Assembly: GCA_963718895.1 (NCBI GenBank)
Contig: CAVRAG010000002.1
Span: 1-12,898, forward strand
Source of the DNA: an uncultured Nitrososphaerota archaeon
GTDB taxonomy: Archaea > Thermoproteota > Nitrososphaeria > Nitrososphaerales > Gagatemarchaeaceae
DNA length: 12,898 nt
Reading direction: 5' to 3'
Every line of letters begins with the position of its first letter. Position 1 is the first letter of the stretch. A program made the position numbers and the translations under genes. The notes beneath the pieces were generated by a model. The model made no database searches, was not told where the DNA came from, and worked only from the letters and a program-made list of their open reading frames with translations. Positions 1,461 through 12,898 of the stretch are shown one piece after another.

Positions 1461-1464
1461 ACGC

Positions 1465-4400
1465 TCACTGGGAGATGTAGATAATCCAGTCGTTGGGAGG
1501 TAGGTTCTGATTCACAGATGGATTGCCCGTTCCCTGAATGACCTGCTTAGAATTGTAGTCCTCCATGCTCCAGCTGGAGGAGTAACCATAGAAGGCTGAA
1601 GAGAGATTCACCTGGACTGGGGCTGCTCGCGGTGGCGTTGCTAAGCATCAGTCTCTTCTGACTTGGGTTCGCAGCAGAAGAGTTCAGGTGGATACCGATG
1701 CCGGAGAAGCCTCCTTGACCACCGGCGCTCAAGGGAGCAGCCCAACTGGTTCTCTTCACGTAGTTGGGGAGGTAGACGGCAGGGGCTGTCTGGCCGCCGA
1801 GCCAAAGGATGGCGTTCAGGGTTAGATATCCGAGACCCGATGCAAGACCATCGCAACCTCCGGCACTGTTCTCGTTCTTGCATCCGATTCCTTCCCCGTA
1901 GTACGATGAAGAGAGGGTCACGACCCTCCCCGCCCCGTATTGGTTGATCGTCCCATACCCTTTCGGCATCGCCGCGTCCAGGTCGGCCTGAGCGTATGGC
2001 AGGGTGATCGGGTGGCCGTACGGTATCGGGAACCGCCGTGGTGCCCACGCCGGTCAGGTCGTTCGGGCGCCCGAGCCGCTGTAGACGAGCAGATTGCCGC
2101 CGTCCTTCACGTACGCTCTGACCAGGTCGATGTCCGAGGCACGTTATCGGGGATTCCGTAAAGAACGTTGAAACTGCCGAGGGACGGATTTGCGAGCCCT
2201 ACTAAGTTCTGAACCTGGCCTTGCAGCGGGAGCTGCGAGTCCACTCCCCACTGGTGACAGACGAGCCCGAGCGCGGAGTAGGTATTCGGACTGTTGTAGT
2301 AGTGGTCGATGGTCAAGAAGCCGGATCTTGTCCTGCACGTAGCCGATACCAGCTCCCTATAGGTATCGTCCTGTAGAGAGCGCCAAAGTGACCCCAAGCC
2401 GTAGTCGTCGTCTGAGTCTGGATCGCGCGAAGCTTGCGGTGTCCGCTTCCATCATGGGATAGGTCGAGAAGAACGGAACTACCGAATTCCAGAAAGCCAA
2501 GACCGTCGCCGGCGTCGCGACCCCAACTAGCTGCTGGCTCCAGAATTGGAACTGTTGTCGAGCGGGTTGCAGAAATTGAAGTAGGGAATGCACAGCTGCT
2601 CACCCCCACTAGCCTGTAGCGCCGCGAAGGACGTAGTCGCACCCGGATCCCATCGTCTCAAGAGATGAATTGTAGTACGACGGGAATTCTGCCAAGTCAG
2701 CTATGGGGATGGCTGTCCTCGCAAAGGCATACGGAGTTCTCTGCAGTACGCTCTGAAGACAAGCCGCCTCGATGGCCGCATTTGCCGTGGCCATGTAGGA
2801 CTCGAAGCTAGAGACTGGCCGCCGGCTCTGTGGTAGGTCGTGACATCGGTTGCCATTTGACGGTCGGGATTATCCCGGTTCCCGGTATGGCGGCGCCCTG
2901 GAGTCGACCGAGACCGTGACCTGTCCCTGATAGTTCGCAGACTGTCCCCTGAAGAGACCACAGCACGCAAGGGCTCCCATCGGAGAGTGGGTCCCGTTCG
3001 CCGTCGTATCTCCCAGATAGAAACCCAGGGGGCTGTTCACATACCTGACATACGAATTCATGTTGTGGCCGCCGTTCGCCCCTTGAGCCCCGCCATAGTT
3101 CACCCCGTGGTCGGACTGAATCCAACCTGCGATACCGGCGAGGTTCTTCAGCCCGACCTTCTTGGTCGATCTGATTGTAGAGTTGCACCCAGAGTCCGCA
3201 GATACTCGGGGGCGTCGATGACAACTCCATTGATCCCATAGGAGCTCGCCGCGGTGAACTTGCCGTTCGCAAGTAGTACTCCTGTTCGTTGGGATAGAGC
3301 TTCGCGGCGTTGAAGACGAACCCGGTGTTGTAGCCCCATCCGTCCAGAGGCCCGAGCACCACTCCCCCCACCGACTGCCAGCCAGCGATCTGGGCGGCCA
3401 GATCTGAAGTGTATCCGTCGCTGCCATCTTGCCAGGGATAGACGCCAAACCCGCCGACCGAAGAGTAGTAGTTGATTGCGGCTTGAAGTGAAGAGAAGGG
3501 TGCGAAACCGATTGGAGGGGCTCCCCATAGGCCACCAGTCCGCACGTGGTCATCCCGTGGGCAAGGAGGATTTGATTGTAGGCGAAGTGACGGGGAGATG
3601 AAGAGGTCGACGTCGTTGTGGTGCTGCTCGAGGTCGCAATCGATGGTCGCTACCAAGTGCTCGTGGTGGTACCGCCGCCGTAGTGGCGCTCGACGTCGTG
3701 CTGGAAGTTGCTGTATTAAACTTCCCGGTCGAATATCCAATCTGGAAGTTGATCGCACAGGGACCAGATACGCGGGCTTCCAGAGACCCCCGAGTCGCTG
3801 GAAACCAGAGTGTCAAAGCCGACCGGGTTCCCTTGGTCGATGCCCTGGGGGCCGTACCTGAACCAGTAGTACGTCAGAGGGACCGACGCGGCGTTCCCGC
3901 TGGCGGAGAGACTACTAACCAGTATTTTGTCCCCGCTTGAAGGACGGGATTCGAACCGCTCACGGGAACGTAGTGTGCTGAGTAGAAGTAGATGTAGGGG
4001 CTTCCATATGTCCCCTGGGCGATGGGCTGACCCATAATGGCGCCCTGGCCGTTGTCGGCATAGATCGAGACGGTGACATTGCTGGAGACCCCGCTGAGCC
4101 TGACACAGTTCACCGTCCCCTTGGACGGAGCCACGAAGGGCTGTGCGACGAGACTGATGGTGTTCACGGGCAAGGGTGAGCCTGGACGACGGGGTTCCCT
4201 AGCGCTTCGGCGGTCGTGAACACCTTGAAGGCCCAGTCAGTCGGACCTTCGGCACAGTACTTCCACGAGAGCCGTTCCGTGGGTCGAGACAATAGCCCCT
4301 GAAGGGGCTCACCATGCGCATGAGCGGAACGTTGAGGGTGCTTGACGCGGTGGAAGGACGACCCAGTAGTTGCCCCCGCCACCACGGGGAGGCTGAACCC

Positions 4401-5785
4401 CTTGGCATCGAGGTAACCCTGCTGGGGGATTGCGCCCGAGTCGAGGGTGAGGAAGCGAGCGAAGCGCCGGGGGCGACTCCAAGCGTTGCTCCGTAGGCGG
4501 GATTGTCGCTATAGAAGGAGACCGTAAAGGGCTGCCGGGAGATAGAATTGCCCTGTTGGGGAATTGTTCCAGACCTCGCATTGAACCTCGGTCAGCGTGC
4601 CGTATTGGTGGGAGAGAATCTGACCGCTGCTTGCCTGGAAGAATTGACGGCATCTTCACCGCCCGCGCCGAAGGGCCCGGGTAGTCGGTGTGCCCGACAA
4701 CGAGCTGCGTGTTCACCAGCTGATACCACGGGGAGTGAGCCTGACCCTGGAAACCCAGCGTCGAGGGGTTGACATTGTTGCCCCTGAACAGGACTCCATA
4801 GGCATACCCGGGTTCGTTCAGCGCTATCTGATATTGATGACCCGGATTCGTGGTCACCACGTTGTCCAGAGTGAACGGAAGCAGTCCCTGCTGTCCGTGC
4901 GAATTCGCGAGCTGGGTCGCAGCCGCCGTGCCCAGAGAGCTTCCCGGCCGTAATGTCTGTGACGGTGAAGCTCCCCTGATAGCCGGGGGTCGTCTGGTGC
5001 ATGTCGGAGAGCCAGGGAGAGACGGTCTTGAAAGAGAACGTGCTGTCGGCGGTGAACGTCAGGGTCGACCCTGGTCCTGTGTTCCAGGGGTGAAGGGGAG
5101 GGTCACGACCTCAGGAGCCGGTCTGATCAGGACCCTCAGCAGGACGAGCCCGTGTTGCCCATGGAATACTGGGACGATGCTGTAGTTCGCGACGCGTTAA
5201 CGTCCCACCAGTTGGGGGTTGCGTCGTTGATCCAGATGTTGTAGTAGTTGGCCGAGTTGCTGTTCTGCGCGGAGAGCGAAACCGTGTAGACGCTCCCCGA
5301 GCGAGGGGCTTGGTAAGGGTGACCGCGATGGGCGGGGTCCACCCCTGTCCCCGACCGACGAGGCGCGATGGTCCCAGAGCCCAGGTGTTGCCGCGGGATC
5401 CTTGATGGTCACGACAAGGGGACCAGGACTGCCGACCACAGAAGCGTAGAATATGCTTACGCCCGTCGCCGGAGAGGGCATAGTGAAGCTCTGACAGAAT
5501 CCGTAGGTGCCAGAGGACGGGGTGAACACCTTGCCGCTACCGGAGTCTTGCGGCGTGAACGTCCACAGGGGTATCAGCGGGCTATTCCTGCCCGAGGGGT
5601 ATGCCGGCAAAGAGGGACGGGAAGAAACTCGGGTCGAAGAGCTCGACAATTGCCGTGGAAAACTGGCACTACCTACAAGCACCGCGCCGACCCCCTAGCG
5701 CGAGCACGCCCTCGACGAACGCCCTCCTGGAGATTCGTCGACCGCTATGGGGCTTCTCTCCGGGGGCGACTTCTCTCTCGGTCAT
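1465..5785 (-). CDS. Large (~1,440 aa) twin-arginine-signal secreted multidomain protein: four beta-sandwich-like repeats, Ser/Thr linker, putative carbohydrate-active C-terminal half; many frameshifts
   Basis: ATG 5785 follows GAGGT (5793-5797). N-terminus MTEREVAPGEKPHSGRRISRRAFVEGVLALG-VGAVLVGSA has a Tat motif and h-region. Protein-like Tyr/Trp/Gly/Asn-rich segments continue through ORFs 5197..5682, 5136..5342, 4592..5002, 4309..4860, 3874..4173, 2808..3758, 2870..3553, 2609..2794, 2357..2593, 2107..2397 and 1547..1969, ending ...NLPPNDWIIYISQ* at 1465. It could be two genes. Confidence 0.7.
3590..3717 (-). repeat. Low-complexity Ser/Thr linker coding region
   Basis: Stitched translation NTATSSTTSSATT...TTTST...ATSSSTTTTSTSSSP. 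Confidence 0.75.
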
Positions 5786-6096
5786 GCTCCATACCTCTTG
5801 ACTGTGGCTGATTCGCATCTCTCGGATTCTAGGCGGCTTCCGGATAGTGGGAGAAGGTGCAAGTATTGGGTGTTCGTTGGAATCAAAGTTTCTCTCGGCG
5901 GTGCTTACACTTTCCATGGGGTTATTTAGCTACAGCTGTGCTTTCTCTCAATTGAGAACCACCGCGTTTTGGTCGGACCGCGGGCGACGAATGCACCGAA
6001 CTGGGATTAAATCGCTCCTCTCCCGAAGTTCTTGCTGATTCTCCTTTGGTTTCACCTCAATCTGACACATGTTCAACCTGGCTCACGAAACACTAT

Positions 6097-6117
6097 ACGT
6101 AATATAAATTTTAAATA
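6097..6117 (+). promoter_or_regulatory. Archaeal TATA box for the 6141 gene (probably leaderless)
   Basis: TTTAAATA at 6110-6117, about 24 nt before GTG 6141, in an AT-rich island within GC-rich DNA. Confidence 0.7.
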
Positions 6118-6140
6118 ACCTTAAATTCATTGACTGAGCC

Positions 6141-7722
6141 GTGAAGGTCCGCTACAGAATCCTCTCGGCGGGGATGGCGCTTCTCCTCGTAATCTCTGCT
6201 GCTCTCGGCGGAGGAATCGAACTCGCCGCCGCAGCAACTTCTCATGCAGCCCTCGACGGTAGCGCCTCGACAGGATGCGGATATGTTACCTCTTGCTCCG
6301 CATCGCTGACAACAACGAATCCTTCGGACGTCATCATAGTTGGGTGCGATTGCCTTGGCGGAGACACATGGTCAGTAAGAGACACCGCCGGCCTGACATT
6401 CACATCTAGGACAGGTCAAATTGCCATAGGGGGAAATCAGTGGGTGGAGACTTGGTATGCTATCTCGCCAAACGTCCTAAGGGGGGATAGCATGGCCATC
6501 CAGACGACATCAAACGGGGAGACATGGTATGGCGTCGTGGCCTTCGCCATCTCCGGGGCGAACACTGCCCAGCCTTTCGCGGCAGGACCTCCCATAGCCC
6601 AGGCGAACGTCAAAGGCTGTGGCAGTCCCTGTAACACAGGAGTCTTTGCACCTGCAGGTTCCTTCGTGTTCCAAGTGGGCGGCGATACAGGATCCAAAGT
6701 CCAGAGTGCAGGACCTGGAATGACGCTGATACAATCGTCCCGATCGGGGCAGGATGCATACGCTCAATATGAGGTCCCTTCTGCCCCAATGTCTGGAGCT
6801 CTTCTCTCGTTCGGCACCGCCCAAGGCAGCGACTTTGGGGCCATCGTCGATGCCATCAATGCAGCATCATCAACGAGCTTCTTCGACTTCGTCCGGAGCT
6901 TCGAGCACTTCAAGCTCATCGAGCACTTCGATGAGTTCCTCCTCTTCATCCACGACCGGTTCCGGATCGAATTCGGCTTCGACATCTTCGAGCACAACTT
7001 CGCAGACTACGACCTCGAGGTCGTCATCAACATACACTACCACCACAGGAACCACAACCACCTCGACAACCTCGTCAGCTGGGAGGGGAACCCCAGGGAA
7101 TGGGGTGTTTTACTTAGGAGCGATGTCGACGGGTTCGTCCGCACTACCCAACGCCGGCGCCCGCAGCTCCATCCAGGTCCAGGCCTTCGACGTTCCCGTT
7201 GGCTGTGTATCTTTCTGGGTGAGTGACGATTCAGCCAGTAACCTCTGGATGCAGGTAGGCTATTACATCTGCTACGGCTCGGTCCCGATGGTCTTCACCC
7301 AGGTCTGGAATCTTGCAACTGACACCTTTGTGTACGGAAACATCCTGAGTTCAGCTCCGACGTCGGGAGTCCACCAGTTCGCGGTCTCCGTCCAGTCTGG
7401 CACCACATGGGTGGCTACGTACGACGGGACCATCGTTGGAAGCTACAACCTAGGGGCGTCCGTGTCCTCATCGTCCTACCCAGTCTATGCGCTGTCGGAG
7501 GAGAACAGTTTGGCCGCACCGATAAACATCCCGACGACAAGCTTCCCTGTGGCGATTCAGGTCCGGGTGAACGGTATCTGGGGTGACCCAGCATCGGTCA
7601 GCGTCTACAACTACGGAGGAGCCTGGGGGCTCCGGGGACCCGGCCAGAATCCACTGATGGCAGCGGACAGCTTCATCGTCGGAGGGTCTCTCCTGAGCCC
7701 ACCCAACGGTTCACCGCTTTGA
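6141..7722 (+). CDS. Secreted protein (~525 aa): signal peptide, beta-rich domain, Ser/Thr linker, G1/neprosin-like glutamic-peptidase-like domain; one frameshift near 6879
   Basis: Signal peptide MKVRYRILSAGMALLLVISAALGGG. ORF 6141..7226 is protein-like to DAINAASSTS, and removing one base near 6879 joins it to the Ser/Thr run and C-terminal domain of ORF 6754..7722 (FWVSDD...LWMQVGY, YALSEEN). Confidence 0.75.
6864..7080 (+). repeat. Low-complexity Ser/Thr linker (~70 aa)
   Basis: SSTSSSTSSGASSTSSSSSTSMSSSSSSTTGSGSNSASTSSSTTSQTTTSRSSSTYTTTTGTTTTSTTSS, with TCGAGCACTTC-type DNA repeats. Confidence 0.85.
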
Positions 7723-7783
7723 GGGCTAGGAAGCAAAGGACCTTCGTCCGGGCGCGGGATTCGAATGGCCGCTCAGCAATTAA

Positions 7784-7813
7784 CTATTTATGTGACGTTT
7801 ATAATTTAAATAG
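7784..7813 (+). promoter_or_regulatory. TATA box of the wHTH gene overlapped by an inverted repeat
   Basis: TTTAAATA at 7805-7812, about 24 nt before ATG 7836. CTATTTA (7784-7790) and TAAATAG (7807-7813) are inverted repeats. Confidence 0.65.
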
Positions 7814-7835
7814 ATTGGCTACACCGGACCTTCCG

Positions 7836-8340
7836 ATGAGCGCAAGCGACCTAGACCTTGGGGGCGGGCTCAAGCTGGCACGTCTGCTCAAGAAGGGATA
7901 CACCGGCTACTTCGAAGGCCGCACCTTCCGAATCCTGCAAGGAGGCACCGTTGTGAACTCGTTCAGCGAGTCTCAGGGAAAGATAGTGACCGAGCTCAGG
8001 CAGAAGAACGCAATGACACCGACTCAAATCTCGGATGTTGTCGGGTCGACCCCGGCGGCCGTAATTTACAACCTCAAACCTCTGATAAGGGCGGGGGTAG
8101 TGGAGAGACGCGCCTCTTCCTGGTGGGACGGTCTTCTATGTTCTCTGCTGGGATGTGGGCGTAGACCTCTCCCCCACACTCAAGGCCAGGATTCAGCCAG
8201 ACGTCTCTAGGATGGGAGGCTGGTCGGAGCTGGCGGGCGTTCCCATGGGGGTCCTCAGGAAGGAACTTGTCTACCTGTCCGAAGACGAGTTCCTTGAGGT
8301 CATGAGGTACCTGGTCTCGGCGAAGAACCTTGCTAGCTGA
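7836..8340 (+). CDS. Winged helix-turn-helix transcriptional regulator (ArsR/MarR-like), frameshift near 8110
   Basis: KIVTELRQKNAMTPTQISDVVGSTPAAVIYNLKPLIRAGVVERR is an HTH plus wing start. A frame change gives PLPGGTVFYVL (wing) and continues into ORF 8155..8340. Confidence 0.75.
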
Positions 8341-8878
8341 CCGAGAAGTGGCCCTACGGCTGGCTGTCGACAGGGACCTCGACAGGAAGCTTAGGATTAC
8401 GAGCGGCTCGCGATTCTTCTGGGTCTACTCGCTCTCGCTCTGGGATCCCGACGCCTTCTGGAAGTGCACTTCAGGGGCATCTACCTTCGCCCTGGTGTGG
8501 CTAACGCTGGAGAGGTTCGTGCCTGGCGGCTTCTCGTCGGCGCCCCTGACCGCGATGGCCTTCTTCGAGTGGTTCCTGCTCGGCCTCATCCTGATGTGGG
8601 TGTACAGTCTCGGACCGTGGCTACACCCGACGAACCTCGCAGTGATCTTCACCTTCATCTTCAGCCTGTACAGGAACAACAAGACGCTCGATGACCTGAG
8701 CCCGAAGGAACTCAACGACCTGTTCCCTGAGAAGGGAGACCCAGCGGAGACGCCCAAGGCGCAAGCCCTGCTCTGGGGGCTCTACACCCGGATCAAGGGA
8801 TTCCCTGTAATCGGGTCGTTGGTGCTTGGGTCCACATTTGCTGCGCTGCTGGTCGCGCTCCTTCTGATAGCGTCCTAG
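8330..8878 (+). CDS. Hypothetical integral membrane protein (about 4 hydrophobic segments)
   Basis: Intact 182-aa ORF with a TTG start overlapping the wHTH stop. Hydrophobic stretches include AMAFFEWFLLGLILMWVY, LAVIFTFIFSLY and VIGSLVLGSTFAALLVALLLIA. Confidence 0.7.
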   Translation: MLADREVALRLAVDRDLDRKLRITSGSRFFWVYSLSLWDPDAFWKCTSGASTFALVWLTLERFVPGGFSSAPLTAMAFFEWFLLGLILMWVYSLGPWLHPTNLAVIFTFIFSLYRNNKTLDDLSPKELNDLFPEKGDPAETPKAQALLWGLYTRIKGFPVIGSLVLGSTFAALLVALLLIAS

Positions 8879-9003
8879 CCAGCCGCGCTAAACCTAAAGA
8901 GTACCCACGAGCGGAACCCTGAAATTCGCGCTCCGGAGGTCTCATGATGAGACGAAAGGACAACGCTCCGACACCAACTAAGCTGTACTCGAGGAGATAG
9001 GAC

Positions 9004-10159
9004 TTGCTCTTGAGACTCCTGAATAGTGACTTTTGACCCGCCGCAGAACATAGGAGGAGTTGAGGGCAGGGTCAAGGCTACGTGACGGAGCTCATGAAGC
9101 AGCGGGAGATTTGTCGAGGTCGAGACCCTTGCGCCAGGCTACAGGTTCACGGACGAGACCTTCTCCGGGATTCCCTCCTTCACAAGTGCCCCTCGGGCTC
9201 GAGCGCGCTCCCCCGTTCCTTCCGCTACACCCTCAAACTCATCAGCAGGGATTCAATCGACTCGGTCTTTCTCCTGAGCGGTGGAATCACCCTCTTCGGG
9301 AACATCCTGCTCCTCTACTGCAGAGTGCGGAAGAAGAGGGGACCGCGATGCTCCTCACGACGAAGGACATCCTTCAAGCCCCGCAAGAGCTCCCTGGGGA
9401 AGGTACTCCTGCTCACTCTTCTCAGCTCCTGGCGAACCGGATAGCAACGAACTCACGGTTCACCGCCTCGCTTCTGCCCCGCTCTCCCAAAGCAAGGTCG
9501 GGCTCCTCTATCCGAGCGTCAATCCCGAACTGCACGGAGCCGCGCCCGTAAGGAGGAGGCCCCCAACCGCTGGAGGCAGGATACTCTTCGTGGGGAGACT
9601 GGTCGAAAAGAAGGGGGTCGACGACCTGATAAACTCGGTTCGATGTCCTGTCCGCCGCGATTTCCCGGCGGCCCGGCTTGAGATAGTCGGAGGAACGGCC
9701 CTGAGATGCCCAAGCTCACGGGAGCTCGTCCGGAGGGCTCGGCCTGGTCGATAGGGTGAGGTTCTATGGCAGTCTGAGGGGCGAGGCCCTGTACAGAGTT
9801 ATGGAAGAGTGCGACCTCGTCGCGATGGCACATCGAAGACGATCCGCGGCGACGTAGAGGGCTTTGGGACCGTCTTTCTGGAAGCCGGCCTGATGGGGGC
9901 TGGTCCTTCATCAGCACCTCTACAGGAGGGATTCCCGAGGCCGTGACCGACGGAGGTCAGCGGGGTGCTCTTGGTCAAAGAGGGGAACGCCGATGAGCTG
10001 ACGGCGGCACTGCAGCGCTTTCCTCTCGGGGACCAGAGCCTCAGAGGAGCAACTCGGCAGGAGAATGCGAGGGCTGGCGGGTCCTGCGGTGACTTCACCT
10101 CGGGACGTTACGACGACTCAGCTCGAGAGAATTCTTTGATAACTGACCGCAGTGGCTGA
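9004..10159 (+). CDS. GT4 glycosyltransferase, heavily frameshifted
   Basis: GAGGAG at 8991-8996 precedes TTG 9004/9010. Stitched N-terminus LRLLIVTFDPPQNIGGVEGRV; ILFVGRLVEKKGVDDLI near 9581-9630; VEGFGTVFLEAGLMG (EX7E) near 9853-9898; GGIPEAV; GVLLVKEGNADEL. The exact stop is uncertain. Confidence 0.85.
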
Positions 10160-10167
10160 ACTAAAGA

Positions 10168-10187
10168 GAGAACCCTTCACGGTTCTC
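10168..10187. terminator. Hairpin between the convergent GT4 and sortase stop codons
   Basis: GAGAACC-cttcac-GGTTCTC, a 7-bp stem in the 38-nt gap. Confidence 0.45.
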
Positions 10188-10197
10188 GTCGGGACGC

Positions 10198-11137
10198 TTA
10201 CCATGATGGAAACCTTGCCGGAGGTCTCAACGGCTCAGACCGGGCTGCCGCTCTGCGGGACAGGACAGGGGAGACTACGGTTGCCCAGTTTTCGGGAGAC
10301 AGGTACTTGAAGGCGAGACCCCAGAAGACCAGAACCCAGATTATGAAGAGGGTGTACCCTGCATAGACGTGCACGGTGTTTCCAATGGAGATGCCAAGGA
10401 AATCGAATGACAGGAAGACGACCAGCAGCCTCAGGATGTTGATCAGAAAGACACCGACGAAACCTATCACAAGTAGCGGAATTACCCTCGAGAGCTTCGC
10501 CTTGACGTCAATCAGAGCCATGCTCCCCCAGGAGTCCGAACGCCAGAACGCCCTGGATTCCCGTGCCATCGCTGGCTACGTCGAGAAGGAGCGGCGAGCT
10601 TGAATTGGAATTCGCCAGCGACGAGGTGGCCCGAGACGGGGTCGACGTAATCCCAAGCACGCTCATCGCCGACGCCATGACCCCGGCCATCCAATCCTGC
10701 AAGACGACGTAGTTCGGTATGTCGTTCTCGACCTGGTAACCGAGCAGGAGGACAACCCCGTAGGCCGCGGGAACCCAGAAGAGCTTGAAGGACCTGATCC
10801 CGAAGAAGGCAACCGCCAGCGCCCCGAAGATGATTACCATGTCGAGCAGTCCCAGGCGTGTAGCCGAAGCTGTCTTGTACGCGTAGACTGCCACGACCAC
10901 GCCCACCCCGAGGACAGTTTCCCAGAGCGTGCTCTTGTTTGTGAGGGCCTCGAAGCTCTCCCATTTCATTATCAGCCAGGCAAAGAAGACTATGATGAAG
11001 ATGAAGAAGTAGGTGAAGTCGATCCCGACCCGGGGGATGGCGAGGGGAAGAAGGAACGACACCAGCAGCGCCACAAGGTACGCGTTGGGGCGAGACATCC
11101 TGCGCCAGTCAATAATGGTGGTTAGTCCCAACTTCAA
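10198..11137 (-). CDS. Exosortase/archaeosortase family transpeptidase (~310 aa, multi-TM), frameshifts near 10530 and 10620-10645
   Basis: Multiple TM helices; soluble loop ending LLLDVASD[G]TGIQG (family V..xCxG position); FLINILRL with Arg at 10429-10431; NTVHVYAGY with His at 10369-10371. ORFs 10508..11137 and 10198..10569 join at FGLLG/SMALID. Confidence 0.88.
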
Positions 11138-11162
11138 CGATTCTGGTGCAATCTGTCAGGCG

Positions 11163-11178
11163 TAATTAAAAATTTCTG
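11163..11178 (-). promoter_or_regulatory. BRE/TATA-like promoter for the sortase gene
   Basis: Minus strand CAGAAATT-TTTAATTA, ending 26 nt before TTG 11137. Confidence 0.6.
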
Positions 11179-11390
11179 GTCTGTTACGGTCGGTACCCTT
11201 CTGGAAAGTCGCTCTCAGGGCCATAGGCCCGGGGGGTTTCACTCTCGGCACAATCCATATAAGCGCCTTCCCAGAACTATCAGGATGTGCTTATGCCGAC
11301 ACCCTCTAACGGGGGACGCTATGAGCCCGGGCTCCCTGAAGAGGTCCGAAATAGCCCATTTTCCGGTTGACTATCCCTCCAAATCCGACG

Positions 11391-11405
11391 TGAATTTCAA
11401 ATTCA
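11391..11405. promoter_or_regulatory. 15-bp palindrome, candidate operator
   Basis: TGAATTT-C-AAATTCA in the divergent intergenic region, about 28 nt upstream of the substrate gene's TATA box. Confidence 0.45.
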
Positions 11406-11432
11406 TGTCCATTGATTTCGGCTTCTTAGGCC

Positions 11433-11438
11433 TTATAA
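11433..11438 (+). promoter_or_regulatory. TATA box for the VPQF-tailed gene
   Basis: TTATAA about 24 nt before ATG 11462. Confidence 0.6.
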
Positions 11439-11461
11439 CCGACCCACGCTAAGGCAGAGTC

Positions 11462-12092
11462 ATGCAACTGAGGAAGCTCGACTGTACTGGCGTCCGTTGG
11501 GGCGATGTTCGCTCTGATGATGCTGCCAACCGCAATGGCAGCGACATACACTGGATCTTTGCAGTGCGTAAGTGGCTGTTCCGTAGGTAACGTAATAGCC
11601 CTGTCTGGTCCTGGAAGCACGGGGACCGCGAACTTCGAGTTCTACGCAAGCAACGCTCCTAGTGGCACGGCAATGCACTACTACGTCTGTCCCATAGGCA
11701 CCGGTTGCAGTTCAAATTCGGGCACCGACAACGGATGGAGCTGGACCTTTACTCCCGCATCAGGGACCGTGAGCACATGCCCATCGGGCACCTGTGAAGG
11801 AGCAGGGTACGGGTCACCCTCGACAATGACGCTGTCACTTACCGCCCCATCGACGGTAACTCCCACAAACGGCCAGGAGACGCTGACCATCTACGCATGC
11901 TCCCAGGTCGGTTCAGAGATGAAGTGTGGCGGCTCATACACTGAGGTTGCGTCACTCACAGTCACAGCGACTGTACCCCAGTTCGCGGTTGTCGGAACGG
12001 GCCTGGCTGTGGTGCTCGGCGCGGTAGGCCTTCTCTTCCTCAGGAAGAAGAGTCTCCCGCAGATCGCGCCCACAGTCGGTACAGCAGTGTAA
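11462..12092 (+). CDS. Secreted Cys/Ser/Thr/Gly-rich surface protein with a C-terminal tripartite sorting signal (VPQF + TM + RKK), PEF-CTERM-like
   Basis: Removing one base near 11481 extends ORF 11505..12092 to ATG 11462, giving signal peptide MQLRKLxVLASVGAMFALMMLPTAMA. C-terminus is ATVPQFAVVGTGLAVVLGAVGLLFLRKKSLPQIAPTVGTAV*, with VPQF at 11973-11984. Confidence 0.85.
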
Positions 12093-12131
12093 GTCATAAC
12101 TACACTGCTGCCATCTGTTTTTCTGATTTTT
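12082..12131 (+). terminator. Stem-loop over the stop codon followed by T tracts
   Basis: CAGCAGTGTA (12082-12091) pairs perfectly with TACACTGCTG (12101-12110), followed by TGTTTTTCTGATTTTT. Confidence 0.65.
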
Positions 12132-12480
12132 CAAGTTCGTCAGATTATTCCGATTTTAACAGTAGGTTTCGGCACTTCTTTCAGCTGACATCTCCGCGTT
12201 CTCTTGGGAGAGGATCGTGTCAATCATACCCTCTCCCGCCGTGATCGACTCGGTTGGGAAGCGGATTCTGCCAGCCTTTGAGCGATCACTTGCGCTACCC
12301 GAGGACTCTTCACTCACGAGAAGTTTCGGAACTCGAAACGGGTGTATTTCGATGGCTCACTCGCTCTCTATTCCACTCATCTGAGCGAGCTAGGAGGCCT
12401 TGGCTCGACTCAAGAAGGGACAAGCAGTCGACATGAAGGCTCCTTACGAGAGATCACAGGTGCGTGGAGCAGCTTCGTCC

Positions 12481-12898
12481 CTAGTTGAACGCATCGGCGA
12501 TTATGAGCCAGGTGTACGTAAGGGGCTGAGACACGGTTGTGAACGACACCTCTAGTTTTGTCTGGGGAGAAGAAACCAGCATGTACTCGGCGACTGTGTC
12601 CTGTGCCAGCGAGGCGTCTCTGTCCGATTGTATCAACGTGTATCCCTGGCCCGTCCCCAGTTGCGGATTGACATCAATCGCTCCCCCAATGATCAGGTCG
12701 CTCGAACAGTCGGTGGAGACGGCTGCCGATATGGTTCCCTGGGTGGTCCCGCTCACCCCGACGGGAGACGGAAGGTTCGGATCGAATGGAGAATTGGTAT
12801 TGGCTCCAGACACCGCGAAGGCGATAATCGTAAGTACGCTCGTTTGGGAGGCTAGGGTAACCGTGATGGGGTCATTGGCTAAAGGGACCGGCGCGATC
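12481..12898 (-). CDS. C-terminal part of a probable extracellular protein; domain paralogous to the N-terminal domain of the 6141 gene; 5' end outside the window
   Basis: The frame is open to the window edge: IAPVPLANDPITVTLASQTSVLTIIAFAVSGANTNSPFDPNLP...GQGYTLIQS...AQDTVAEY...WLIIADAFN*. Confidence 0.8.
   Translation of the reverse strand, partial: IAPVPLANDPITVTLASQTSVLTIIAFAVSGANTNSPFDPNLPSPVGVSGTTQGTISAAVSTDCSSDLIIGGAIDVNPQLGTGQGYTLIQSDRDASLAQDTVAEYMLVSSPQTKLEVSFTTVSQPLTYTWLIIADAFN

Follow-up and report, generated by a model that had tools for sequence, protein, structure and literature searches.

In this work, we analysed a stretch of 12,898 nucleotides (hereafter the window) from an uncultured Nitrososphaerota archaeon of the Gagatemarchaeaceae (assembly GCA_963718895.1, contig CAVRAG010000002.1), and more particularly a divergent gene pair encoding a membrane protein of the archaeosortase/exosortase family and a secreted-type protein with a C-terminal sorting signal. 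The window is the entire contig C2 of a genome (G000) of 3.13 Mb in 11 contigs, 80.5% complete and 5.4% contaminated. The enzyme gene (10198..11137, minus strand) encodes a multi-pass membrane protein matching PF09721 and TIGR04178 and belonging to no named subfamily. It is separated from the substrate gene (11462..12092, plus strand) by a divergent promoter spacer of 324 nt (11138..11461), extending from the TTG start of the former to the ATG start of the latter. Both the divergent arrangement and the spacer length are exactly those given by the initial annotation, which had been made from the DNA letters before any database search.

As assembled, the enzyme gene is broken into two open reading frames (ORFs), 10508-11137 and 10198-10569; its intact homologues have a length of about 286-299 aa. 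The N-terminal ORF exceeds the cut-off of Pfam PF09721 (Exosortase_EpsH; 27.2 bits versus 25.7), and the C-terminal ORF barely exceeds that of the TIGR04178 signature (23.9 bits versus 23) and scores 17.6 bits against ArtC (TIGR03762). The assembly is noisy and this gene carries several indels, in agreement with the early caveat that the sequence is error-prone.

A search with the N-terminal ORF returned 151 relatives, every one of which carries PF09721; their names, where given, are generic only (“exosortase/archaeosortase family protein”, from Nitrososphaerota, Nitrososphaerales or Thaumarchaeota). Thirty full-length homologues (about 270-337 aa) were aligned (alignment A1), and all of them retain C190 (DCTG.QG), R235 (N[IV].RL) and H255. 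In the window, the conserved Arg (NILR, equivalent to R235 of homologue P0002) lies at 10429..10431 and the conserved His (TVHVY, equivalent to H255 of P0002) at 10369..10371, both on the minus strand. The exosortase-like Arg...His arrangement noticed at the outset is thereby extended to a Cys...Arg...His order common to the 30 sequences.

The enzyme was classified on hidden Markov model scores. The generic TIGR04178 signature was matched by all 30 homologues, the intact ones at 38.7-44.4 bits among the nine scored in detail. Against the named models, these nine reached 41-59 bits for 8TM_EpsH (cut-off 105.55), 33-37 bits for XrtA (cut-off 208), 16.2-47.4 bits for ArtC in eight cases (cut-off 100; the ninth, P0007, being unmatched at E <=0.01) and 19-20 bits for the thaumarchaeosortase model TIGR04297 in two cases (cut-off 250). 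Across the 30 members, the best E-values were 1.5e-19 for 8TM_EpsH (~70 bits by conversion) and 4e-13 for ArtC (~50 bits), again below the cut-offs. The ArtA model was not among the 14 NCBIfam families matched by the 30 homologues, and a comparison of the enzyme profile with solved structures gave no match at E <=1. The enzyme is thus assigned, from its sequence, to an unnamed subfamily of the exosortase/archaeosortase family, and it is predicted to be an intramembrane cysteine protease with a Cys-Arg-His triad.

The substrate gene is predicted to encode a secreted, Cys-rich, immunoglobulin (Ig)-like protein carrying a Sec signal peptide (MQLRK...AMA|ATYTG) as well as a tail composed of VPQF, a transmembrane helix and RKK, as in its homologues (alignment A2). 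A surplus base is present at 11479 in the window and absent from a 204-nt short-read contig of the public run X1, which may be the source sample. Once this base is removed, the N-terminus resembles that of the homologues, i.e. MQLRKLAVLASVGAMFALMMLPTAMA followed by ATYTG. The sorting signal (11973..12050, plus strand) comprises VPQF (11973-11984), a hydrophobic helix of 19 residues, AVVGTGLAVVLGAVGLLFL (11985-12041), and RKK (12042-12050); 13 further residues precede the stop codon (12090-12092). It scores 50.9 bits against a tail profile (A3) that was trained on the tails of this genome and of the substrate family. The tripartite tail described initially is therefore present, and it has the generic layout of a sortase signal, in which the signature abuts a hydrophobic helix and basic residues lie near the C-terminus.

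Three copies of the substrate gene were found in the genome, i.e. in the window, at C4:13028-13669 and at C7:777541-778341, the third being 86% identical in DNA. The family is small (17 representatives at E <=0.001 among 1.84 billion), Thr/Ser-rich, and characterised by nine invariant or near-invariant Cys in alignment A2. The AlphaFold model of a close homologue (P0121; mean pLDDT 74.6, core 80-94) consists of a beta-sandwich followed by a C-terminal helix. Foldseek searches with this model retrieved only generic beta-sandwiches (Ig-like, PapD-like, pilin and nanobody folds; TMq 0.21-0.34 among the matches listed). In the peat metatranscriptome run X2, near-identical contigs were found on the substrate gene (best 232 nt with two differences) and none on the enzyme gene. 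Such contigs in an RNA library are compatible with expression of the substrate and are not proof of transcription.

Each gene has a TATA-like element of its own, as proposed earlier. That of the enzyme, AAATTTTTAATTA, lies at 11163-11175 on the minus strand, 26-38 nt upstream of the TTG, and that of the substrate, CCTTATAACC, at 11431-11440 on the plus strand, 22-31 nt upstream of the ATG. The core CTTATA of the substrate promoter is kept in all five aligned upstream regions (paralogues and relatives). At 11392-11404, 58-70 nt upstream of the ATG of the substrate, lies a perfect palindrome, GAATTTCAAATTC. The palindrome region is likewise retained in the five upstream regions; the palindrome stands at the same position in the C4 and C7 paralogues and, reading GAATCTGAAATTC, in the related loci L007 and L008. 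It is a candidate regulator site.

The association between enzyme and tail was then assessed on the genomic neighbourhood. In the genome studied, both copies of the window-type sortase have a tail within ~350 nt, which exceeds chance, as the tail profile has only 14 matches of >=26 bits in the entire 3.13 Mb. We also considered 23 loci taken from species-representative genomes. The fetched flanks of 16 include an ORF with a [VTA]P[EQ]F-helix-basic tail, and those of seven a homologue of the window substrate, five of them head-to-head (one of these five, in L005, being truncated where its contig ends). The pairing is therefore kept in relatives. The titles of the 23 loci read Nitrososphaerales, Nitrososphaerota, Thaumarchaeota or (uncultured) archaeon, with one Candidatus Gagatemarchaeum stordalenia; the host lineage of the enzyme is that of the non-ammonia-oxidising, Gagatemarchaeum-like Nitrososphaerales. 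As in the window, 12 of 26 loci have a group-1 glycosyltransferase gene close to the enzyme.

Co-occurrence points in the same direction. Among the 23 genomes of the genus, nine have the enzyme, 12 have tails and eight have both, i.e. VP(E/Q)F tails occur in 8/9 enzyme-positive versus 4/14 enzyme-negative genomes. In a sample of 401 genomes of the class, the window-type enzyme was restricted to four (including G000), with 0/223 in family f2, 0/78 in f4, 1/11 in its own family and 2/9 in f12. Among the matches listed, tails with E <1e-7 were found only in G000, G034 and G001, all enzyme-positive (three of the four positives of this sample), and the G034 tail lies ~200 nt upstream of its enzyme. 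Six enzyme-negative genomes of the class gave single tail matches of 24-27 bits, again among the matches listed.

The third position of the signature was examined separately, as the initial annotation had suspected that its Q might be a one-base error of E. This suspicion did not hold. VPQF is read in the three genomic copies of the substrate (C2, C4 and C7), and record 3 of run X1, which spans 11957-12107 ungapped and differs only by one G>A, contains the C at 11979. Because the three copies and the short-read contig agree, the Q of the window tail is genuine and is not a sequencing error.

Both residues are nevertheless found at this position, whichever set of tails is considered. Among 12 relatives of the substrate retrieved from a set of 5.8 billion proteins (one being the genome's own C7 copy), eight have Q, three have E and one, truncated, has no tail. 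A profile search of 1.84 billion representatives gave 17 matches, of which the 15 fetched comprise seven Q, six E and two without a tail. The genome itself has 16 tailed open frames (five VPQF and 11 [VA]PE[FY]), and two of these VPQF tails belong to frames that have no relation to the window substrate family. In the other 22 genomes of the genus, the 32 tail-profile matches divide into 17 Q, 14 E and one without the motif. Additionally, a second protein family alternates, with VPEFPFGLAIL...KSKFAAQATR in G000 (C4:5605) and VPQFPLGFA...KSKYAARATR in L091; further tails of this family, in L098 and L083, were compared with that of C4:5605. The tails near window-type enzymes amount to 10 Q and 10 E, and an alignment of 27 tails shows an invariant P and F, with V present in at least 90%. 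The signature is therefore V-P-(E/Q)-F, with Q and E interchangeable at the third position. Given this interchange, VPQF is one allele of a PEF-type signal rather than a class of its own.

The closest known systems include ArtC/PEF-CTERM (TIGR03762/TIGR03024). ArtC pairs with PEF-CTERM, and similar pairings of signal and subfamily run from ArtB to ArtE. ArtC was the best-scoring named archaeal model, matching 25 of the 30 homologues, and the layout of the PEF-CTERM signal is the same, with a P-E-F-type signature directly followed by a helix and then by a basic cluster. The homologues, however, remain at 16-47 bits for a cut-off of 100; TIGR03024, for which the cut-off is 23, attains at most 16.9 bits in the genome and leaves the window tail unmatched at E up to 10, and about half of the window-type tails have Q instead of E. 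Thaumarchaeosortase and PEFG-CTERM (TIGR04297/TIGR04296) are found in the same archaeal order, with a signal starting with [VI]PEFG and several substrates per genome. Five order-mates, from families f2 and f4, served as a positive control: the thaumarchaeosortase scored 362-619 bits in every genome and PEFG-CTERM tails exceeded the cut-off in all five, from one (G210) to nine (G008) per genome; the six tails that were read all have E, in the pattern [VI]PEFGT.... By contrast, the window-type enzyme attains 19-20 bits for a cut-off of 250, the genome studied has no match to the thaumarchaeosortase, and its best PEFG-CTERM score is 14.8 bits (cut-off 25), with no match at a VP(E/Q)F tail. The weak PEFG-CTERM and PEF-CTERM matches of this genome are mostly ordinary membrane helices.

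Two further systems were compared. ArtA/PGF-CTERM of Haloferax volcanii shares the enzyme superfamily and the tripartite signal logic, and passages of PMC6098224 and PMC9263693 present ArtA as the model for cleavage and lipid anchoring. Its critical residues are given in a passage of PMC9263693 as Cys173, Arg214 and Arg253, i.e. Cys-Arg-Arg as opposed to Cys-Arg-His here, and its signal is PGF as opposed to VP(E/Q)F. The Cys-Arg-His triad is that of bacterial exosortases as described in parts of the Haft preprint (10.1101/2023.06.07.544157), and would thus be shared with EpsH/XrtA (TIGR02602), the partner of PEP-CTERM. EpsH/XrtA loci are also rich in glycosyltransferases for surface polymers, and group-1 glycosyltransferase genes flank the window-type enzyme. 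The differences are the score (41-59 bits versus 105.55), the archaeal host and the signature. In its main text, the Gagatemarchaeaceae paper PMC10640624 makes no mention of sortase, exosortase, S-layer or glycosyltransferase.

Taken together, these results lead us to a reading that we regard as probable: the window carries a copy of a lineage-specific archaeosortase and one of its substrates, whose VP(E/Q)F signal tolerates either E or Q, and the defects seen in the window are mostly assembly errors. What carries it is the family membership, the conserved residues, the genuine Q, the E/Q interchange, the neighbourhood and the co-occurrence. The initial annotation had proposed a dedicated and possibly undescribed pair. 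Dedication to one target does not fit the approximately 16 VP(E/Q)F-tailed open frames of the genome; as to novelty, the enzyme does belong to an unnamed subfamily, and the signal proved to be a variant of the VPEF type.

Several points weigh against this reading. Owing to the training set of profile A3, the tail counts in the genome studied follow from the construction of the profile, which at >=26 bits finds 14 places in 3.13 Mb before a fall to <=21 bits, 13 of the 14 being training sequences. Two enzyme-positive genomes, G407 (genus) and G341 (family), have no tails, and G406, G408, G410 and G415 (54-82% complete) have one or two tails and no enzyme. As related genomes are not independent, the co-occurrence is a strong pattern and not a statistical proof. 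To our knowledge, ArtA is the only archaeosortase studied by experiment, the other subfamilies being known from genome patterns only, and the experimental evidence for cleavage and anchoring is that on ArtA. Among contigs from four public runs compared with the window, none covers the stretch 10171-10667. Finally, the window copy as assembled lacks the catalytic Cys, the codon at 10565..10567 (minus strand) being GGC (Gly) where the C4 paralogue and the related loci L005-L008 have TGC. The change at the active site, from GAC TGC in these sequences to GAT GGC in the window, replaces Cys by Gly through two substitutions and no indel, and a dead copy is therefore possible.

On this last basis, the window enzyme could be a decayed pseudogene, the functional gene, if any, being the C4 paralogue or lying elsewhere. 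The substitutions are accompanied by at least three indels in ~150 nt, and the second copy of the enzyme (C4:14015-14864, 81.5% identical over the aligned stretch) has retained its Cys. We nonetheless consider decay unlikely. The C4 paralogue is itself frameshifted, by a surplus base of its own directly after the Cys and at another homopolymer than in the window copy. In the latter, a run of five C (10525..10529, minus strand; G5 on the coding strand) corresponds to G4 in the DNA alignment with the C4 paralogue and the four relatives L005-L008, and this +1 insertion splits the ORF; the same alignment reveals a second surplus base farther upstream. The gene of the essential, single-copy aEF-2 (C7:786050-788172) is likewise interrupted by in-frame stops and falls into at least three frame pieces (profile positions 11-211, 215-368 and 364-720). 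The frameshifted C4 copy, the surplus substrate base missing from the short-read contig and the broken aEF-2 together indicate that such an error density is general in this assembly. Since an essential gene is broken in the same manner, we read the enzyme defects as assembly errors, most likely so for the frameshifts and probably for the Gly at the Cys position. Not every long gene is affected: unlike aEF-2, the match to RNA polymerase B domain 6 sits in an unbroken open frame of 1,075 residues. A read-level check is due for any broken gene of this genome before it is called a pseudogene. Programmed frameshifting was also considered and rejected, since the shift falls at a different homopolymer in each of the two paralogues and the relatives show none.

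A second sortase-family gene was detected at C1:28051-29037 (locus C1:28051-30503; L028, L066). It exceeds the cut-off of the generic signature only (35.6 bits), and no BLASTP similarity to the window-type enzyme was detectable. It adjoins a 478-aa NHL/ScyE-like protein ending in VPEYPYQLAAA...RRR, a similar tail being present at C8:1488209-1489597. This sortase and the VPEYPYQ-tailed protein probably form a separate sorting pair.

The existence of this gene leads to another explanation, in which the C1 sortase would process the VP(E/Q)F tails, or these are plain permanent membrane anchors, and their adjacency to the window-type enzyme is incidental. The C1 enzyme is, like the window one, recognised only by the generic signature and has a tailed neighbour, and processing by either enzyme is an inference only. 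The distribution of the two types argues otherwise. C1-type sortases are present in 8/23 genomes of the genus, and those with this type only (G401, G404, G416 and G418) have no A3 tails, whereas the five genomes with the window type only have 0-4, four of them 2-4. Moreover, the neighbourhood is found again in loci whose enzymes share 36-98% identity with the query (best segment). We therefore hold this explanation to be improbable.

Slightly less probable still, and already largely refuted, is the proposal that PQF-CTERM is a distinct, undescribed signal with a dedicated enzyme: the three VPQF substrate copies are indeed the only tailed genes directly beside a window-type sortase in the genome, an hmmscan of the substrate tail against the named-signal models gave no match, and neither PQF-CTERM nor ‘PQF motif’ was found in the literature searched, where VPQF occurred in four of the papers listed, none of them about a sorting signal as judged by title and abstract start; but orthologues read VPEF in 3/12 and 6/15 cases, the second protein family alternates across genomes, the enzyme subfamily adjoins as many E as Q tails (10 each), and the genome holds 11 more tails in [VA]PE[FY] and two more in VPQF on unrelated frames. 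Of the observations that, for the initial annotation, would have spoken against its proposal, a VPEF reading in homologues was made in part, both residues being found, while no named subfamily was reached by the enzyme and the pairing was conserved.

Under the favoured reading of a lineage-specific archaeosortase with several substrates, the pair would function as follows. The substrate would be exported through Sec and transiently anchored by its C-terminal helix. The Cys-Arg-His sortase would then recognise V-P-(E/Q)-F where it abuts the helix, at the membrane surface. By analogy with ArtA/PGF-CTERM and with the family account given in parts of the Haft preprint (10.1101/2023.06.07.544157), the helix and the basic cytoplasmic tail would be removed, and at the cell surface the protein would be transferred to a lipid or another acceptor, or passed on in some other way. 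Cleavage of the tail and anchoring are inferred here from these better-known systems.

The remainder of the window was also surveyed. Most of 1464-12898, sortase and substrate included, is a diverged copy of C4:12215-24001 (75-81.5% DNA identity), which may reflect a segmental duplication or a co-binned relative. The flanks at 1-1250 and 9281-10159 contain two group-1 glycosyltransferase genes and a fragment of an FkbM-type methyltransferase gene; the glycosyltransferase gene at 9281..10159 (plus strand) is fragmented and convergent with the enzyme gene. These genes suggest a surface-glycan island, and the flanking glycosyltransferases suggest a glycosylated cargo or a surface-polymer context. 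Related secreted-type proteins with neither a Pfam family nor a sorting tail, frameshifted here, are encoded at 6141-7722 and 12481-12897; the former frame recurs near the enzyme in 6/26 loci and the latter in 3/26. A winged-helix gene lies at 7719-8210.

What these results describe is a new branch within an already known system of surface-protein sorting, as opposed to a new kind of system. Its particular points are its place in the non-ammonia-oxidising Nitrososphaerales, instead of the thaumarchaeosortase, and the free alternation of E and Q in its signature. A bolder interpretation, which we advance tentatively and would not yet favour, is that of a separate archaeosortase class that replaces thaumarchaeosortase in these organisms, for which the acidic residue of PEP/PEF-type signals is dispensable for recognition, and whose head-to-head Ig-like partner is a core surface component (S-layer anchor or fibre subunit) and not one substrate among many.

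The host lineage is widespread and uncultured, inhabits soil and peat, and is related to the ammonia oxidisers. As an indication of habitat, the word shares of the public runs were set aside, all of them being 0.16 or less. Current annotation models overlook both the archaeosortase subfamily and the signal that are added here. As the enzyme is named only generically and the tails have no model match, the surface proteome of this lineage is under-annotated. There is also a practical warning, since the enzyme most likely looks dead in the window only through the noise of the assembly. Finally, the natural E/Q alternation provides a ready-made mutational series for this family of signals, indicating which positions of the motif count for recognition: the P and the F never vary, and the charge appears dispensable.

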